Origin: Alphaproteobacteria bacterium
GTDB lineage: Bacteria; Pseudomonadota; Alphaproteobacteria; Bin95
DNA length: 64,000 bases
Assembly: GCA_965205265.1 (NCBI GenBank)
Contig: CBDBGH010000003.1
Span: 2,112,001 to 2,176,000, forward strand
Direction of reading: 5' to 3'
The notes under the pieces are model-generated. The model worked only from the letters and a program-made list of their open reading frames with translations, was not told the origin of the DNA and did not search any database. Shown piece after piece: positions 27,966 to 33,820 of this stretch (position 1 is the stretch's first letter; each line of letters begins with the position of its first letter). The position numbers were made by a program, and so were the translations under genes.

Positions 27966-29141
27966 TCACAGCCGGATGTTGCGCGCCGCGTCTTCCGGGT
28001 CCCGGTGCAGGAATTCCGGCCCCAACCGGTCCAGCGACGGGCAGCCGATCTGGGCCATCACCTTGTCGATCTCGTCGCGGAGGATGTCCACCGCCCTGAC
28101 GGCTCCGGCCGCGCCGCCCGCGACCGCGCCGTAGAGCGTCGGTCGGCCGAGGAACACAAACTTCGCCCCGCTCGCGAGCGCAATCAGGATGTCCGCGCCG
28201 CGCCGGACGCCGCCGTCCAGCATCAGCGCCATGCGGTCGCCCACTTCCGCATCCAGCGCCGGCAGCACATCCAGCGGCGACGGTGCCCGGTCGAGCTGGC
28301 GGGCGCCGTGGTTGGAGACCATCAGCCCGTCCACGCCGGCCTCCGCCGCCTGGAGCGCATCGTCGGTGCGCATCACCCCCTTCAGGATGAACGTGCGCGG
28401 CCAGAGCGCCCGGAACCGCTCGATATCGGCCCAGGTGAGGTTGGCCGGGACCTGTTCGGCCATGAATTCGCCGACCTCGAGCGCGCTCGCGCCCGCCGGC
28501 GCATAGGGTTGCCAGTTCTCCAGCATGGCGAAACCCTGTTTCATGTAGTCCCGGAGCCAGGCGGGATGGCGGAGCGTGTCCAGCTTCGTCCTGAGCGTCA
28601 GCCTGAGCGGGCGGCCGAAGCCGTTGCGCCGGTTGCGCTCGCGGTTGGAATGGACCGGCACATCGACCGTGACGACGAGCGCCGGAATCCCGAGATCCGC
28701 CGCGCGGCGGATCATATCTTCGGAGATCGAGCGGTCCTTCGCCGTGTACATCTGGTACCAGCCATGCTCCGGCGCCTCTCGCGCCATGTCCTCCATCGAA
28801 GCGTTGGCGGCCCCGGACATGATGAAGGGGATATTGGCGTCGCGCGCCGCCCGCGCCAGCATCATGTCGCCGCCGCAACGATAATTGCCGATGCCGCCGG
28901 TGGGCGCGATGCCGTAGGGGCTCGACCAGGTGCGGCCGAACAGCTCCACCGACTGGTCGAGCACCGAAACATCGACCATGTAGCGAGGCACGAGGGAACG
29001 CCGCTGAAAGGCGTCCTCATTGCGCTGGAGTCCCTCCTCGTCGTCCACGCCGCCCTCGATGAAATCATAGACCAGCTTCGGCACGCGCTTCTTCGCCAGC
29101 ACGCGCAGATCGTCGAGATTGATGCACTTGTCGATATTCAT
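27966..29141 (-). CDS. FMN-dependent alpha-hydroxy-acid oxidase/dehydrogenase, paralog A
   Basis: WYQMY, TVDVP..NRE, SNHGARQLD, DGGVRRG. Confidence 0.9.
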   Translation of the reverse strand: MNIDKCINLDDLRVLAKKRVPKLVYDFIEGGVDDEEGLQRNEDAFQRRSLVPRYMVDVSVLDQSVELFGRTWSSPYGIAPTGGIGNYRCGGDMMLARAARDANIPFIMSGAANASMEDMAREAPEHGWYQMYTAKDRSISEDMIRRAADLGIPALVVTVDVPVHSNRERNRRNGFGRPLRLTLRTKLDTLRHPAWLRDYMKQGFAMLENWQPYAPAGASALEVGEFMAEQVPANLTWADIERFRALWPRTFILKGVMRTDDALQAAEAGVDGLMVSNHGARQLDRAPSPLDVLPALDAEVGDRMALMLDGGVRRGADILIALASGAKFVFLGRPTLYGAVAGGAAGAVRAVDILRDEIDKVMAQIGCPSLDRLGPEFLHRDPEDAARNIRL

Positions 29142-29285
29142 CCGGCCCTCCCCCGGCGCCGGCCGCCGTTGCGTCGGGCAGAGTATTCCCAACCGGCCCC
29201 GTCCTGTCAGCCGCAAACTGTCCCACCCCATAATGGTCCGCTCCGGGGCGCGACAAATGACCCGGCGGGATCGGGTGTAGCATGA

Positions 29286-29772
29286 TGTTCATTAAATATC
29301 GGTAATAATTCTAAAAAACATTTGACATATTAGAACAAGACTCCATATTTGGCCGGACGGGGCGGTGTCCGGAAGCCGCCTTGTCCTTCGCGTCCGCGCC
29401 GGCGCGAAAAAGCCTCGATTCAGCCGACAGGCGAAGTGCGCCCTGCGCCTGGCTCGCGCGCGCGGGCGCACCCGGGCAATCAGGCGCGCGATTCGCGCCG
29501 CCGCGAAACGCGCGCAGGCGGGCGCAGGCACGGGCGCGCAGGATACGCGCGAATCAGGGTCCCGCCGCGCCGGGCAGCCGGGTGGCGGGGAGAGTGGAAC
29601 AAAACGGGATGAAAGAACGATATGCGGAAGATGAACAAACACAGCTTCGGCGAGGCACACATGCCGCCGGACAAGCTCCCCTCCTGCTCGCGGGAGAGGC
29701 CGGGAGAGGGGCGGAACCCATGCTCGAACAGCACACAGGTTATGCGCCTCGCGCATGCGGAACATGACATTT
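29286..29772 (+). repeat. Dispersed non-coding element, copy A (AT-rich promoter, conserved core 29416-29561, CATGAC end motif)
   Basis: Collinear similarity to the reverse complement of 61048-61471. Confidence 0.75.
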
Positions 29773-29787
29773 GTATGGACGCCTCCC

Positions 29788-30062
29788 GTTACGCAAGGGT
29801 TGATTTGGTGTGAGGGTTTTGGAGGTTGCAGTTTTGTATCCGGCCTTTTGTGTGGGGCGTGATGCCCGCTGGCCCTGATGGGATTTGCCGATCCGCGCCT
29901 CATTTCCATGACGGGCCTCTCGCCCTTCAATGTCATGCAGGCTTGGCGGATCGCGGTCTGCCCCGTTTGCCATCACTCCTTGTCGTGCCTTGCGCAATCT
30001 TCTGGCGGCTTCCTCCTGTGCCGGTTCGCCCTGTCGGTTTGTGTGCTGTTGTCGCTCTCACC
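29788..30062 (-). ncRNA. Bridge/seek RNA region of the IS1111-type element (boundaries approximate)
   Basis: Target-matching guides at 29901-29912 and 29929-29937; donor-matching guides at 29833-29839 and 29878-29884; each pair brackets a hairpin. Confidence 0.75.
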
Positions 30063-31043
30063 CTATGTCGGCTGGCTGACGAAGTTCGCCTGGTATGCCC
30101 GGTCATGAGCCAGCAAGGCCCAGATCGTTCGCGCCGTCTTGTTGGCCAGCGCCACTGTGACCACGTTGGGCGGTCGCCGCGAAGCCAGGCGCAGGGCCCA
30201 TTCGGGCGGTGTCTTGCTTCTGGCGAGCACCGTGCGCGCGCCGTGGATCAGCAGGGTCCGCAGATATTTGTCGCCGCGCTTGGAGATGCCGAGCATGCGC
30301 ACCCGTCCCCCGGTGCCCGTGTGGCGCGGCGCCAGACCGAGCCAGGCGGCGAACTCGCGTCCGGAGCTGAAGGCGGCAGGATCGCCCATCACCGCCACGA
30401 CAGCGGTCGCGGTGAGTATGCCGACGCCGGGGATCTCCGCGACCCGCTGGCTGCCGGGACTGCTGCGGTGCCACAGCGCGATCCGTCGTTCGATCACGGC
30501 GATGTCCCTGTCGAGCGTACCGACACGCTTCCACTGCTCGCGCAGGGTCTCGACGACCGGCGCCGGAAGACGCGCCGCGAGGCGGTCCAGGGCCGGAGCG
30601 ATCCCACGACCGATGCCGGCCCGACCTTTCGCCATGACCTCGCCATACTCGGCCAGCAGGCCGCGCAGGGCGTTGATCTGCGCGGTGCGGAACTTCACCA
30701 ACTGCTGGCGCATGCGATGCAGCGCCAGAACCGCCTGCTGCTCCTCGCTCTTGACCGCCACCGTCTTCACGCCCGGTTGCTGCGCGGCGGTCCAGATCGC
30801 CCGGGCGTCACGCGCGTCGTTCTTGTTGCCGACCGCGAAAGGCCGCACCGCCCGCGCCCAATGCTGCGAGCCCCCGCACGCCTCCATCGCCACCACGCAG
30901 GGCGAACGGGCGGCGAAATGCTTCAGGAACTTCGCCCGCACCAGCTGCAAATCGACAATCTCCCCCGTCTCCCAATCGACCCAGTGCAACTGGAACACGC
31001 GCTTGGCCGTATCCACACCGACCACCGTTCTGTTAGTCTCCAT
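30063..31043 (-). CDS. IS110-family recombinase/transposase with an apparent in-frame internal deletion (possibly inactive)
   Basis: GVDTAK, MEAC, KNDARDA, IPGVG, GLAPRHTGTGG, VALANKTAR; HWAR runs directly into AVRPF. Confidence 0.85.
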   Translation of the reverse strand: METNRTVVGVDTAKRVFQLHWVDWETGEIVDLQLVRAKFLKHFAARSPCVVAMEACGGSQHWARAVRPFAVGNKNDARDARAIWTAAQQPGVKTVAVKSEEQQAVLALHRMRQQLVKFRTAQINALRGLLAEYGEVMAKGRAGIGRGIAPALDRLAARLPAPVVETLREQWKRVGTLDRDIAVIERRIALWHRSSPGSQRVAEIPGVGILTATAVVAVMGDPAAFSSGREFAAWLGLAPRHTGTGGRVRMLGISKRGDKYLRTLLIHGARTVLARSKTPPEWALRLASRRPPNVVTVALANKTARTIWALLAHDRAYQANFVSQPT

Positions 31044-31372
31044 CTCGGACCCTCCGGTTTGCCTGTGAAGAGCTCGCTCTTCCCTCTGGGCACTCTAGAT
31101 GCCGTCGGCCCGAGAGGGTCCAACTCAACCCCCACAACCAACAACATCAGGACAGGGAGGCGTCCATCCCATTTCTATGACACATAGCGCGGCGTCCCGC
31201 CGGGTCGCATGATGAAACATGAGGAGCTCATATGGATAGGTTGACGGGGAGGCCGGCGACACTTTTTCCGTCATGCCCGGACTTGTTCCGTATGCGGTGC
31301 GAGCGCCCCACCTTCATACAGGCCTGGTGATGTGGGAGTTAGGGTTCGGAATGAGACGAAGGGAATTTCTCA

Positions 31373-31771
31373 TTGGAGCCCTCAGCAGAGCTTCTCACCA
31401 ACGCCAGGGTTGAAGTGTTGCCGGCGCGTGGCGGCTTTCGCCGTCGCTGGCCGGCTTCGGTGAAAGCGCGGATTGTTGCCGAGACACTGGAGGAAGGCGC
31501 GACGGTCGCCGGGGTAGCGCGTCGCTACGAGATCAACTCGAACCAGCTGTCGGAATGGCGCCGCCAGGCACGGAAGGGCCTTCTGGTGTTGCCTGCGGAG
31601 GGCGAGATGGGTTTTGCTCCGGTGGTCTTGCGTCAGGATGAGCGCCGGGTTCCCGCTGCGGGCAGCGACCGCCTGGAAGTGATCCAGGACCGGGTGACGC
31701 TCCGTCTGGACGCCGCGACACCGGCTTGCCGGATCGCCGAGATCGTGTCGGCGTTGAACGCATCGGTATGA
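31373..31771 (+). CDS. tnpA: IS66 TnpA (HTH)
   Basis: RRRWPASVKARIVAETL...VARRYEINSNQLSEWRR. Confidence 0.88.
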   Translation: MEPSAELLTNARVEVLPARGGFRRRWPASVKARIVAETLEEGATVAGVARRYEINSNQLSEWRRQARKGLLVLPAEGEMGFAPVVLRQDERRVPAAGSDRLEVIQDRVTLRLDAATPACRIAEIVSALNASV

Positions 31772-32121
31772 TCTTCCCATCGAACCGGGTCCGGATCGTG
31801 GTTGCGACGAAGCCCGTGGACTTCAGGAAGCAGCACGACGGCCTTGTTGCGCATGTGAAGAGCGTATTGCGCAAGGACCCGTTCACGGGAACGGTCTTCG
31901 CGTTCCGTACGAAACGAGCTGACAGGCTGAAGCTGATCTACTGGGACGGGACCGGCCTGGTGATGGTCTACAAGCGTCTGGAGGACCAGGGCTTTGTCTG
32001 GCCGGCGATCCGCGACGGGGTGATGTCGCTGAGCCATGCGCAGTTCGAGGCGCTGTTCTCCGGGCTGGACTGGCGCCGTGTGCGAGCGCTGTCGGCACGG
32101 CGCCCGGCTGAGGCCGAATGA
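31768..32121 (+). CDS. tnpB: IS66 accessory protein TnpB
   Basis: PVDFRK, DRLKLIYWDGTG..YKRLE. Confidence 0.92.
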   Translation: MIFPSNRVRIVVATKPVDFRKQHDGLVAHVKSVLRKDPFTGTVFAFRTKRADRLKLIYWDGTGLVMVYKRLEDQGFVWPAIRDGVMSLSHAQFEALFSGLDWRRVRALSARRPAEAE

Positions 32122-32176
32122 CTCACTGGGCGGATCGGGGCGTGCCGCGTCCCGACACTGTGCTACCAGACTGGCC

Positions 32177-33820
32177 ATGCCGGCCCTTGCGGAGATCGAC
32201 CTCGGAACGCTGACGCCCGAACAGCGGGAAGCGGCGGTGCAGGCAATCGCGGCGCTGGAGGTGCTTCGCGCCGAGAACGAGACGCTGGCGGAAGAGAAGG
32301 CCTGTCTCGCGGGCGAGAACGAAGTTCTGACGGACCGCAACGGGGCTCAGGCGGAGCGCATCCGCCGTCTCGAACATCTGAACCTCGAACTGATCCGCCT
32401 TCTGTATGGCAAGAGGTCGGAGAAGCTGTCGGCGGACGAGCGCCAGCTGGCGTTCGAGGACCTTGAGGGCGCGGCGGCGGAGATCGAAGCAGCGGCCGCG
32501 CCGGAAGATCCGACGCCGGCCCAATCGCCGAAGCGTCCTCGCCCGGCGCGCAATATCGGCCACTTGCCGGAGCATCTGGAGCGGATCGAGCAGGTGGTCG
32601 AGCCGGAGAGCACGCTCTGCCCCTGCGGCTGCGGGGAGATGGTGAAGATCGGCGAGGATCGCACGGAGCGCCTGGACATCGTGCCGGCGCAGCTTCGGGT
32701 GATCGTCACGGTGCGGCCGAAATACGCCTGCCGGGCCTGCGAACAGGGCGTCACCCAGGCGCCGGCGCCGGCCCGGCTGATCGAGGGCGGGTTGCCGACC
32801 GAAGGCGCGATCGCCCATGTGCTCGTCTCCAAATACCTGGACCATTGCCCGTTGCACCGGCAGGCGCAGGTCTATGCCCGTTCCGGCCTCGATCTGGACC
32901 GCTCGACGCTGGCCGGCTGGGTCGGCAGGGCGTCATTCCATCTGAAACCGGTGGCCGACCGGCTGGCGGAGCATCTCAAGCGCTCTTCGAAGCTGTTCAT
33001 GGACGAGACGCGGGCGCCGGTGCTCGATCCGGGCCGCGGCAGGACCAAGACCGGCTGGCTGTGGGCGCTGGCCCGCGACGACCGTGCCTGGAGCGGACCC
33101 GACCCGCCGGGCGTTGTGTACTTCTATGCGCCCGGGCGCGGCGGTGAATATGCCGAGCGCTTCCTCGACGGCTTCGATGGTATCCTCCAGGTGGATGGCT
33201 ATGCCGGCTACAACCGGCTGACTGGACCGAGCCGCAAGGGCGGCGCGCCGATACGGCTGGCTTACTGCTGGTCCCACGCGAGGCGCCGGCTCCGCGAGAT
33301 CTACGACAGCAGCGGCTCCGAGATCGCGGCAGAGGGCCTGCGCCGGATCGCCGAGCTCTACGCCATCGAGGCCGACATCCGCGGCAGCCCGCCCGAGCAA
33401 CGTCTCGCAGAACGACACGCGCGCTCCGCGCCCCTGGTCGAGGCCTTCGGCGACTGGCTGAAGCAGCAGCGCGCCCGCATCTCGCCCAAGTCCCGCCTCG
33501 GCGAGAAGCTCGCCTATATCGCCCGTCACTGGGACGGCCTCCGGCTGTTCCTCGCCGACGGCCGCGTCGAGATGGACAGCAATGCCGTCGAGAACCTCGC
33601 CCGGCCGATTGCCCTTACAAGGAAAAACGCGCTCTTCGCGGGTCACGACGAAGGCGCAGTCGCCTGGGGCCGGATCGCTTCACTCACCCAGACCGCCAGG
33701 TTGAACGGGGTCGAGCCCTACGCCTGGCTCAAGGCCACCCTCGAAGCCATCGCGGTCGGCCATCCCAACGACCGCATCGACGACCTGCTCCCGTGGAACT
33801 TCAAGCCGTCGTCAAGCTGA
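32177..33820 (+). CDS. tnpC: IS66 transposase TnpC
   Basis: CPCGC/CRAC zinc finger, FMDET, QVDGYAGY, CWSHARR, IDDLLPWN. Confidence 0.94.
   Translation: MPALAEIDLGTLTPEQREAAVQAIAALEVLRAENETLAEEKACLAGENEVLTDRNGAQAERIRRLEHLNLELIRLLYGKRSEKLSADERQLAFEDLEGAAAEIEAAAAPEDPTPAQSPKRPRPARNIGHLPEHLERIEQVVEPESTLCPCGCGEMVKIGEDRTERLDIVPAQLRVIVTVRPKYACRACEQGVTQAPAPARLIEGGLPTEGAIAHVLVSKYLDHCPLHRQAQVYARSGLDLDRSTLAGWVGRASFHLKPVADRLAEHLKRSSKLFMDETRAPVLDPGRGRTKTGWLWALARDDRAWSGPDPPGVVYFYAPGRGGEYAERFLDGFDGILQVDGYAGYNRLTGPSRKGGAPIRLAYCWSHARRRLREIYDSSGSEIAAEGLRRIAELYAIEADIRGSPPEQRLAERHARSAPLVEAFGDWLKQQRARISPKSRLGEKLAYIARHWDGLRLFLADGRVEMDSNAVENLARPIALTRKNALFAGHDEGAVAWGRIASLTQTARLNGVEPYAWLKATLEAIAVGHPNDRIDDLLPWNFKPSSS

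Follow-up and report, generated by a model that had tools for sequence, protein, structure and literature searches.

The RNA-guided architecture of IS1111/IS110 elements was published in 2024: a seekRNA has been described in the IS1111 elements ISEc11, ISPa11, ISKpn4 and ISPst6 (Siddiquee et al. 2024, PMC11187229), which as far as that account sets out their ends carry terminal extensions of 7 (or 6) bp on the left and 3 bp on the right and make no target duplication, and a bridge RNA has been described in IS621 (PMC11208160, PMC11208158). Within the window, the 64,000-nucleotide stretch of DNA that we analysed, positions 29772–31174 of the minus strand very probably represent one IS1111-type copy (IS110 family) together with a minus-strand seekRNA/bridge RNA that specifies a 16-bp target; the element adds no new principle to the published architecture. 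Over the properties that PMC11187229 describes, it resembles the IS1111 seekRNA elements in its non-coding region downstream of the gene, its 11–13 bp subterminal repeats, its 7/3 extensions and the absence of a target duplication; in a transposase of about 340 amino acids (in intact relatives) with a GL-P----S(t)G motif; in a top-strand guide lying 5' of the bottom-strand match, with the two matches overlapping in the target; and, like ISPa11 in particular, in targeting a dispersed chromosomal repeat. It differs from them in its target, GTCATGGAATGTCATG, in its hosts and in a deleted transposase, and is known here from sequence alone. The features that define its extent and its gene are as follows.

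29772–31174, minus strand: whole IS, 1403 bp; ends from alignment with 28 related elements, boundary from empty sites (own genome and the related genome G001)
29775–29787, no strand assigned: subterminal inverted repeat of the right end (low-coordinate side), plus-strand sequence ATGGACGCCTCCC, 13 bp
31155–31167, no strand assigned: subterminal inverted repeat of the left end, plus-strand sequence GGGAGGCGTCCAT, 13 bp
30063–31043, minus strand: transposase gene, 326 amino acids, with DEDD RuvC-like and Transposase_20 domains (PF01548, PF02371; NF033542)

The two repeats are perfect 13-bp reverse complements of each other, within the 11–13 bp usual for IS1111. Taking GTCATGGAATGTCATG as the empty site, AAATGGG precedes the left repeat and ACA follows the right repeat in the inserted DNA, which fits the IS1111 extensions, and target duplication is absent, as the family requires. 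We set the limits by the IS1111 convention, 7 bp beyond the inverted repeat on the left and 3 bp on the right, so that one copy of X, the base apparently common to target and donor, lies inside them and a second copy lies at 29771. From the stop codon to the right end, downstream of the transposase gene, the non-coding region measures 290 nt, again as in IS1111; it spans 250–291 nt in 27 of the 28 relatives, the remaining one (L019) reaching 427 nt because of a shortened reading frame. Searches of Rfam matched no family to 29000–32000 at E values up to 1, and yielded only sub-threshold chance matches to 29280–29780 at E values up to 10. Among the records compared, no name was found for the element, and the closest named one in the plasmid collection is IS884 (IS110-like, from Cupriavidus necator H16 plasmid records). 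Matching 74% of the query at about 65% nucleotide identity, IS884 is too far removed to be this IS.

Protein matches to Pfam PF01548 and PF02371 and to NCBIfam NF033542 (‘IS110 family RNA-guided transposase’, 278 bits) bore out the assignment to the IS1111 type proposed in an earlier note on this DNA. The C-terminal motif (window protein, GLAPRHTGTG; L030, GLVPAQTGSG) fits the IS1111 pattern and aligns with the Ser region of IS621 (8wt6); as described in PMC11208160 and PMC11208158, the IS621 recombinase likewise combines a DEDD RuvC-like domain with a C-terminal Ser/Thr domain. At about 30859 the window copy has a 45-bp in-frame deletion, removing 15 amino acids of the RuvC-like domain, a feature that the earlier note did not mention. 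All four DEDD residues are kept. Pfam aligns the DEDD domain over positions 1–153 of an intact relative (L008; 51.7 bits) and over 88–153 only of the window protein (37.6 bits), a partial match that follows from the deletion; the deletion also places the protein, at 326 amino acids, outside the 330–350 of IS1111, a defect of this copy rather than of the element type. Among the 28 relatives the longest ATG-started frame encodes 339–345 amino acids in 19, 369–386 in seven (with an upstream in-frame ATG) and fewer in two. Since the phmmer alignments to IS621 (8wt6, E 2.5e-07) and ISCro4 (9t56) were confined to the C-terminal domain, the deleted segment has no placement on the RuvC fold. The loss of 15 residues probably inactivates the transposase and renders the copy immobile, and because the element is also single-copy in its own genome, it is most likely stranded.

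Every string match that the earlier note had read between the 3' non-coding region and the flanks of the element was present. The segment 29901–29912 (CATTTCCATGAC) agrees with 31170–31181 (CATTTCTATGAC) at 11 of 12 positions, the exception pairing G in the RNA with T in the DNA, and 29929–29937 (AATGTCATG) is the reverse complement of 29763–29771; elsewhere in the region, 29833–29839 is identical to 29770–29776, and 29878–29884 is the reverse complement of 31166–31172. The first two matches define the putative guides and their targets.

29929–29937, minus strand: 5' target-loop guide, RNA CAUGACAUU, complement of the top strand across X and the right target (element orientation)
29901–29912, minus strand: 3' target-loop guide, RNA GUCAUGGAAAUG, composed of 7 nt from the left target followed by X and a constant AAUG
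29763–29771, no strand assigned: right target half (element orientation), X (29771) plus ATGTCATG, part of the dispersed repeat
31175–31181, no strand assigned: left target half, GTCATAG on the minus strand, differing at one position from both the guide and the family consensus GTCATGG

The earlier note's proposal of a target loop with one strand matching each flank agrees with how guides and flanks vary together among relatives. We found 47 related loci, in hosts that include alphaproteobacterial MAGs, Burkholderiaceae and Xanthomonadales, and could recognise both ends in 28; the other 19, in which one end went unrecognised (contig ends, truncation or divergence), were left out, and L029 has no flanks. 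Aligned, the non-coding regions form a conserved scaffold with two variable blocks, exactly at the guide positions given in the earlier note. All 19 distinct guide pairs score at least 12 of 15 against their own flanks, whereas none of 298 cross pairings reaches 12 and two reach 11 (mean score 13.68 for own flanks, 7.01 for cross pairings). Judged by this covariation, target choice in elements of this kind is probably RNA-guided. Two of the 28 loci match at one flank, L021 at the right only and L020 at the left only. The guide type of the window occurs in nine elements, eight of which (the window element, L008–L013 and L014) match at both flanks, with L021 the ninth; the sites are GTCATGGAAATG / AAATGTCATG in L008–L013 and GTCATGGAAATG / AAACGTCATG in L014. 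These 19 guide pairs on one scaffold amount to a natural reprogramming series, which could help to define the guide register, crossover base and junction promoter in the less-studied IS1111 branch.

The same alignment yields a consensus fold for the RNA.

29821–30008, minus strand: conserved seekRNA/bridge-RNA region, eight helices in the consensus fold of the relatives’ non-coding regions
29890–29900, minus strand: 3' strand of the target-loop closing stems (helices 4 and 5), partner strand 29938–29952
29913–29928, minus strand: hairpin between the two target guides (helix 6), pair 91–101 being GC in nine sequences and AU in eight

Over its 40 pairs, 95.8% of alignment cells are paired, against 89.9% in shuffles (none of 500 reaching 95.8%) and 32–44% when the fold is slid along the alignment; 15 pairs change on both sides, and the guide columns are unpaired. 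The stems that the earlier note had drawn by eye (GATCCGC/GCCT with AGGC/GCGGATC, and a GGGC/GCCC hairpin) correspond to helices 4, 5 and 6 and show compensatory changes, pairs 64–123, 65–122, 61–126 and 73–118 of the closing stems being altered on both sides. In the family consensus the guides thus occupy an internal loop bounded by covarying stems, as that note had predicted, while folding the window RNA as a single sequence joins one guide to the other, CAUGAC to GUCAUG; the looped state is a model that derives from the family consensus and not from the single-sequence fold.

Two further segments resemble the donor guides of a bridge RNA.

29832–29839, minus strand: left-donor-guide-like segment, RNA AUACAAAA, from comparison across 19 elements
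29878–29884, minus strand: candidate right-donor guide, RNA AUCCCAU, able by sequence to pair with ATGGGAT at the IS left end

In order, AUACAAAA comprises the 4 nt that immediately precede the terminal A of the right end, that A itself, X and 2 nt of the left end; this second RNA region would thus read out of the right end through X into the left end, which is the sequence of a circle junction. With two guide pairs, one strand to each side of the crossover and guides that overlap at the core, the arrangement would parallel the IS621 bridge RNA as PMC11208160 and PMC11208158 describe it. Going by the same descriptions, the window element differs in that its RNA lies 3' of the gene, that of IS621 lying 5', in the reversed order of guides within the loop, in its long subterminal repeats and in a candidate right-donor guide that does not reach the core, ending short of X. 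Four of the seven nucleotides of this candidate pair with an upstream UGAUGG in helix 2 of the consensus fold, so that in the model it may be sequestered in a helix.

That overlap invites the reading that survives best among the alternatives, although we consider it unlikely on balance: the target loop exists but a donor-binding loop does not, the protein recognises the ends through the subterminal repeats, AUCCCAU is simply a strand of helix 2 and the match of AUACAAAA is incidental. Helix 2 (UGAUGG with CCAUCA) is paired in 97.4% of cells, with pair 43–135 GC in 11 sequences and AU in eight; AUCCCAU is only imperfectly complementary to the left end, G:U wobbles occurring in L015–L017 and in the beta-proteobacterial group, with mismatches in L019, L030 and L037; and an 82-nt short seekRNA of ISEc11 with the target matches is reported to suffice for transposition (PMC11187229). 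Against these points, the AUAC/AUAU part of the left-donor-like segment tracks the right end in 19 of 19 elements, and X in 19 of 19, following X as A, G or T by lineage and including the G and T variants in three lineages; column 134, outside helix 2, changes from C to U along with G to A at the left end in most lineages; helix-2 pair 39–139 is broken in L030 and L037; and loops complementary to the donor are reported among IS1111 members (Durrant et al., PMC11208160). A different closing stem for the donor loop, GGCA/UGC, was also considered and rejected, its variable positions being non-compensatory in an alignment judged by eye.

We turn to the length of the target, on which the earlier note erred. 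It had rebuilt the empty site as AACATGA-CATTT-CTATGACAC, with a 5-bp core; the resulting 17-bp target has no copies in the own genome or in G001, a relative with at least seven copies of the element, whereas the 16-mer GTCATGGAATGTCATG occurs ten times in the own genome and 12 times in G001. In a second lineage (G003) the empty site is GCGACAATTATGTTGG, with X again single. The reconstructed target is therefore one base too long. A target GTCATGG-A-ATGTCATG (element orientation), lying within a dispersed chromosomal repeat, would account for the 16 bp, and counts of the pattern in the own genome agree with the note's placing of the site in a repeated chromosomal motif.

The longer version, in which the element is programmed for the 17-mer CATGACATTTCCATGAC (CATGAC-N5-YATGAC) with a 5-bp core CATTT at both ends and a circle junction CCATCC-CATTT-GTATGG, can claim that CATTT is indeed found next to the element at either side, in the window as in L008–L013, and that the 12-nt guide fits the 17-mer read straight across the flanks. 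It is nevertheless very improbable. In the own genome GTCAT[AG]-N5-GTCATG is found 0 times, against 136 for the N4 spacing, and in G001 all 12 pattern matches have N4 and none of the 12 has N5; the proposal that other copies would occupy the same site held (at both flanks in eight of nine elements), while the N5 spacing it specified gave way to N4 in the empty sites. Relatives with other targets (such as L030, L037, L038 and L024) lack the AAATG repeat in the right flank, and the last four guide nucleotides track the IS left end rather than the target, both being GATG in L032. The apparent core arises because the window target is by chance similar to the first bases of the IS left end, which carries a general caution: an empty site rebuilt from a single occupied copy can be one base off if the target resembles the IS end.

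By sequence comparison, then, target and donor in the 16-bp reading have one base in common, X, and the 5-bp core is accidental. The same base stands at both junctions in 18 of 19 elements, L015 differing between its two X positions; L018 and L030 carry G as X, L024 and L025 carry T, and the rest carry A. With X variable in three lineages, this reading of the core rests on few independent events together with the empty sites. In all 19 distinct guide pairs the 3' target guide matches X, and in only 13 of the 19 does the 5' guide match it. The two target guides would overlap at X alone, and X would be the sole base that target and donor must have in common; the core would accordingly comprise 1 nt (A, G or T), in contrast to the CT dinucleotide reported for IS621.

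Least credible of all, and scarcely worth entertaining, is the notion that the guide–flank matches are captured remnants of target DNA or chance rather than functional RNA guides: the target hexamer GTCATG is indeed common in the own genome (4,813 occurrences), but when the 290-nt non-coding region was shuffled 5,000 times by mononucleotide, an exact left-flank match of at least 9 nt appeared in 18, a right-flank match of at least 11 of 12 in none and both together in none, 19 different guide pairs follow 19 different flank pairs where no cross pairing does, the matches sit in a fixed scaffold between covarying stems, and experiments on family relatives are reported to find the RNA essential and reprogrammable (PMC11187229).

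The guides of the 16-bp reading have one further peculiarity, which, like the single common base, we describe by comparison. The AAUG tail that closes the 3' guide has the same sequence as the first 4 nt of the IS left end and is matched in 17 of 19 distinct guide pairs. Because the tail copies the start of the IS, the 3' target guide would read the recombinant left junction over 12 contiguous nucleotides; such an extension of one guide into partner DNA would resemble the handshake guides described for IS621 (PMC11208160, PMC11208158). We tentatively suggest, as a possibility that falls somewhat short of an even chance, that the element combines one freely variable common base with a composite 3' guide (left target, X and the first four IS bases) that reads the recombinant left junction and not the naive target. 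Were this so, the same loop could act either in excising the integrated element or in a handshake of four bases; L020 and L021, each matched at one flank, would be natural products of half-site recognition; and the geometry would be unlike the two-base CT core of IS621.

With the 5-bp core accidental, the circle junction is therefore predicted to hold four A, not three as in the junction proposed earlier: it would read CCATAC-AAAATG-GGATGG, with four A between CCATAC and TGGGATGG. A promoter may be rebuilt there.

29791–29796, minus strand: putative −35 hexamer TTGCGT of the junction promoter

The −10 hexamer, CAAAAT, would span the junction and be present in the circular form only; three A would cost it its final T, a further point against the 17-mer. 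The best promoter candidate falls at the same position in 18 of 19 elements, and an internal promoter scan of the integrated element gave no sigma-70-like sites. Rebuilding of a promoter at the circle junction is described for IS621 (PMC11208160, PMC11208158) and would apply by analogy to the window element, in which circle formation by excision, a promoter at the junction and strand exchange guided by RNA would follow the published IS1111 and IS621 mechanisms.

Four of nine sequencing runs with matching material, all of them in the form of contigs, were examined and showed no circle-junction or empty-site joint; the four joints listed in the runs have short sides (23–35 nt) and are located elsewhere. 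In two RNA-library runs from one metatranscriptome study, Logan contigs of a relative about 96% identical, which carry neither RNA ends nor strand and so cannot reveal a small RNA, cover 29761–30387 and 29763–30095 in the non-coding region. An orthologous empty locus was sought in relatives and none could be picked out, because the left flank is itself a high-copy repeat; for genome annotation, the element is a single copy, probably dead, inside a high-copy repeat. The repeat core of about 250 bp beside the target has a weak consensus fold, with 21 pairs and no compensatory changes on one strand and 27 pairs with six on the other.

The element, at 29772-31174 of the window, contains a single long open reading frame (ORF) whose 326-residue product carries the Pfam domains DEDD_Tnp_IS110 and Transposase_20 and matches the NCBIfam model 'IS110 family RNA-guided transposase' with 278 bits; the gene is followed downstream by 290 nt of non-coding sequence. 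All tested features that define the IS1111 family are present except transposase length, which departs only through a deletion in this copy. The closest named annotation found is IS884, with ~65% nucleotide identity, and the kind of system is one known since 2024. The element interrupts no gene and is present once in its own 5.7-Mb genome (G000). That genome also holds two copies of a distant, different IS110-family element (G000:C3:588517-589169 and C3:2334742-2335394; loci L002-L007), which resembles the window element only over short stretches of 69-90% identity.

Features of the element and its neighbourhood, in window coordinates
27966-29231, minus strand: gene for an FMN-dependent alpha-hydroxy-acid dehydrogenase (413 bits with PF01070), upstream of the repeat in which the element sits
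29330-29771 and 31175-31200: dispersed repeat, ~450-500 bp, also in many other places in the own genome (for example G000:C3:851164, 1896916 and 1576556)
29775-29787 and 31155-31167: perfect 13-bp inverted repeats flanking the ORF
29832-29839, minus strand: donor-side segment AUACAAAA
30063-31043, minus strand: transposase ORF, 326 aa
31373-33820: IS66-family element, close neighbour of the IS1111-type element
31373-31771: HTH_Tnp_1 protein of the IS66-family element
31726-32121: IS66 Orf2-like TnpB of the same element
32036-33820: DDE_Tnp_IS66 transposase of the same element

An earlier note, made from the sequence alone, had read guides for the element's own junctions in the non-coding region. 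All the string matches it listed lie at the coordinates it gave, and among 5000 shuffles of this region the exact 9-nt match to the left flank arose 18 times, the 11-of-12 match to the right flank never, and both together never. A scan of one genome per species yielded 47 loci encoding relatives with 55-90% amino-acid identity, in alphaproteobacterial metagenome-assembled genomes (MAGs), Burkholderiaceae, Xanthomonadales and other hosts; both ends could be recognised in 28, the other 19 being left out for contig ends, truncation or divergence. The 3' non-coding regions, once aligned, revealed a conserved scaffold with two variable blocks, precisely at the proposed target-guide positions: the 5' block is reverse-complementary to the right flank and the 3' block has the sequence of the left flank (in element orientation). 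The left-flank match extends over 12 contiguous nt in L038 and the right-flank match over 9 nt in L019, while between L031 and L033 a C/G swap in the guide is mirrored by the complementary swap in the flank.

We collapsed the loci to 19 distinct guide pairs and scored each out of 15, from six positions of the left guide and the best 9-nt window of the right guide. All 19 pairs score at least 12 against their own flanks; against the flanks of elements with different guides, none of 298 pairings reaches 12 and two reach 11 (means 13.68 and 7.01, respectively). Nine elements carry the window's guide type, and contrary to the possibility that other copies might sit at unrelated sequences, eight of them (the window element, L008-L013 in one MAG and L014 in another) match the same site on both flanks. 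The ninth, L021, has a perfect right flank and a left flank matching at 4/8; in L020, the left flank matches the guide and the right flank is unrelated. These one-flank matches could be half-site insertions or later rearrangements; half-match recombination is reportedly the subject of a 2026 preprint.

Folded as a single sequence, the window RNA forms a CAUGAC-GUCAUG pairing between its two guides, a consequence of the direct hexamer repeat in the target; on its own, this result would speak against looped guides. In the consensus fold of 19 non-redundant 3' non-coding sequences, however, both guide blocks are unpaired, lying in an internal loop closed by helices 4 and 5 and enclosing helix 6; these are the GATCCGC/GCCT stem and the GGGC/GCCC hairpin of the earlier reading. 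Paired cells amount to 95.8% in this fold against 89.9% in shuffles (0/500 reach the observed value), and sliding the partners by 1-3 columns leaves 32-44% of cells paired. Two-sided changes occur in 15 of 40 pairs, most of them splitting two clades and so representing few independent events.

The observation in the earlier note is thus real and its general reading right, with the details of target length, core and circle junction wrong by one base. Joining the flanks with one CATTT had given a CATGAC-N5-YATGAC target; in the own genome, GTCAT[AG]-Nn-GTCATG occurs 136 times with N4 and never with N5 (N3, 7; N6, 4; N7, 2; N8, 1), and the 16-mer GTCATGGAATGTCATG occurs ten times. In G001, a relative's genome with at least seven element copies, the pattern GTCATGGA-N{0,2}-ATGTCATG has 12 matches, all without the extra base. 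In a second lineage, whose target differs, the sole empty site found, GCGACAATTATGTTGG in the relative's genome G003, is again one base shorter than the joined flanks; the other four genomes searched gave no match. From such empty sites, the inserted DNA runs as AAATGGG, left repeat, body, right repeat and ACA, with the same 7-bp left and 3-bp right extensions that PMC11187229 describes for IS1111 elements.

The base beside AATG on the left equals that beside ACA on the right in 18 of 19 representatives. For most representatives this base, X, is A; L018 and L030 have G, and L024 and L025 have T. The 3' target guide and the donor-side segment each carry a copy of X in 19/19, and the 5' target guide matches it in 13/19. 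On these comparisons, X is the only base common to target and donor across the representatives, in place of the 5-bp core first proposed, which appears in the window because the target after X continues ATG, like the left end of the element. The 3' guide ends in AAUG, a four-base tail identical to the start of the element in 17/19, and in L032 guide tail and element start both read GATG, so that the 3' guide would read the recombinant left junction over 12 nt.

On the donor side, AUACAAAA tracks the right end (ATAC or ATAT) in 19/19 and matches the circle junction over 8 nt if this contains four A, as against 7 nt with the three A suggested previously. A second segment, AUCCCAU, has its complement, ATGGGAT, at the window element's left end; among relatives the match is often via G:U and fails in L019, L030 and L037. 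In the consensus fold, an upstream UGAUGG pairs with four of its seven bases as helix 2, in which a change from GC to AU involves both strands and 97.4% of cells are paired. AUCCCAU may be a strand of an RNA helix or a DNA guide. A donor loop may not be required in the IS1111 family, because, according to PMC11187229, transposition of ISEc11 needed no more than its short seekRNA, in which the target matches lie. Set against IS621, the window RNA lies 3' of the gene, its guide order is reversed (top-strand complement first, as PMC11187229 describes for the IS1111 family), the core is one variable base rather than CT, and a full donor loop is a candidate only.

An internal promoter scan of the integrated element found zero sigma-70-like sites. 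In the computed circle junction, the best -35/-10 pair falls at the same position in 18/19 elements, its -10 hexamer composed of right end, X and left end (CAAAAT in the window, TAAAAT or CATAAT in others), which fits the family's junction promoter as described in PMC11187229 and points to a putative one in the window element.

The window copy itself is damaged. Compared with ten relatives, its protein has lost 15 residues from the segment that runs from HWAR to AVRPF, after the second acidic residue of the DEDD set and before the third; the DNA shows a 45-bp in-frame deletion at about 30859. In the intact relative L008 these 45 bp are present and have a copy of the 8-bp repeat GGCGCGGG on either side, an arrangement suggestive of replication slippage. 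Of the Pfam DEDD model, the L008 protein covers positions 1-153 (51.7 bits) and the window protein covers 88-153 only (37.6 bits). Neither the RNA region nor either end is damaged, and the own genome still offers ten perfect empty targets, yet it has a single element copy; we infer that this copy cannot move on its own and is probably dead.

The target hexamer pairs form the 3' part of the dispersed repeat, about 150 bp from its GC-rich core of ~250 bp, which has 56 BLAST matches in the own genome at E <=1e-20; of 12 other genomes of the genus searched, 11 match a left-flank query containing the core more than once. An AT-rich, promoter-like 5' part with TTGACA and TAnAAT-like hexamers precedes the core, followed by GGAAC repeats, a variable stretch and, in most copies, GCATGCG...CGCAT and the CATGAC hexamers, two or three of which lie 10 bp apart within 260 nt in 25 of 40 copies. 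The repeat has no Rfam match and its consensus fold is weak. Targeting of such a repeat has a counterpart in ISPa11 and IS621, whose insertion sites are REP sequences according to PMC11187229 and PMC11208160. On the side of the IS66-family element, the sequence that starts near 31295 is found by BLAST in 10-11 copies in the own genome.

In two metatranscriptome runs of one study, contigs of a ~96%-identical relative span the non-coding region and extend 10-12 nt into the same flank; they carry no information on a small RNA, its ends or strand, and were not counted as evidence. The copy in these contigs has C>T at window 29906, changing the 3' guide from GUCAUGG-A to GUCAUGA-A, which would fit the repeat variant GTCATGAAATGTCATG, present in 23 copies in the own genome, and is possibly a one-base natural retargeting.
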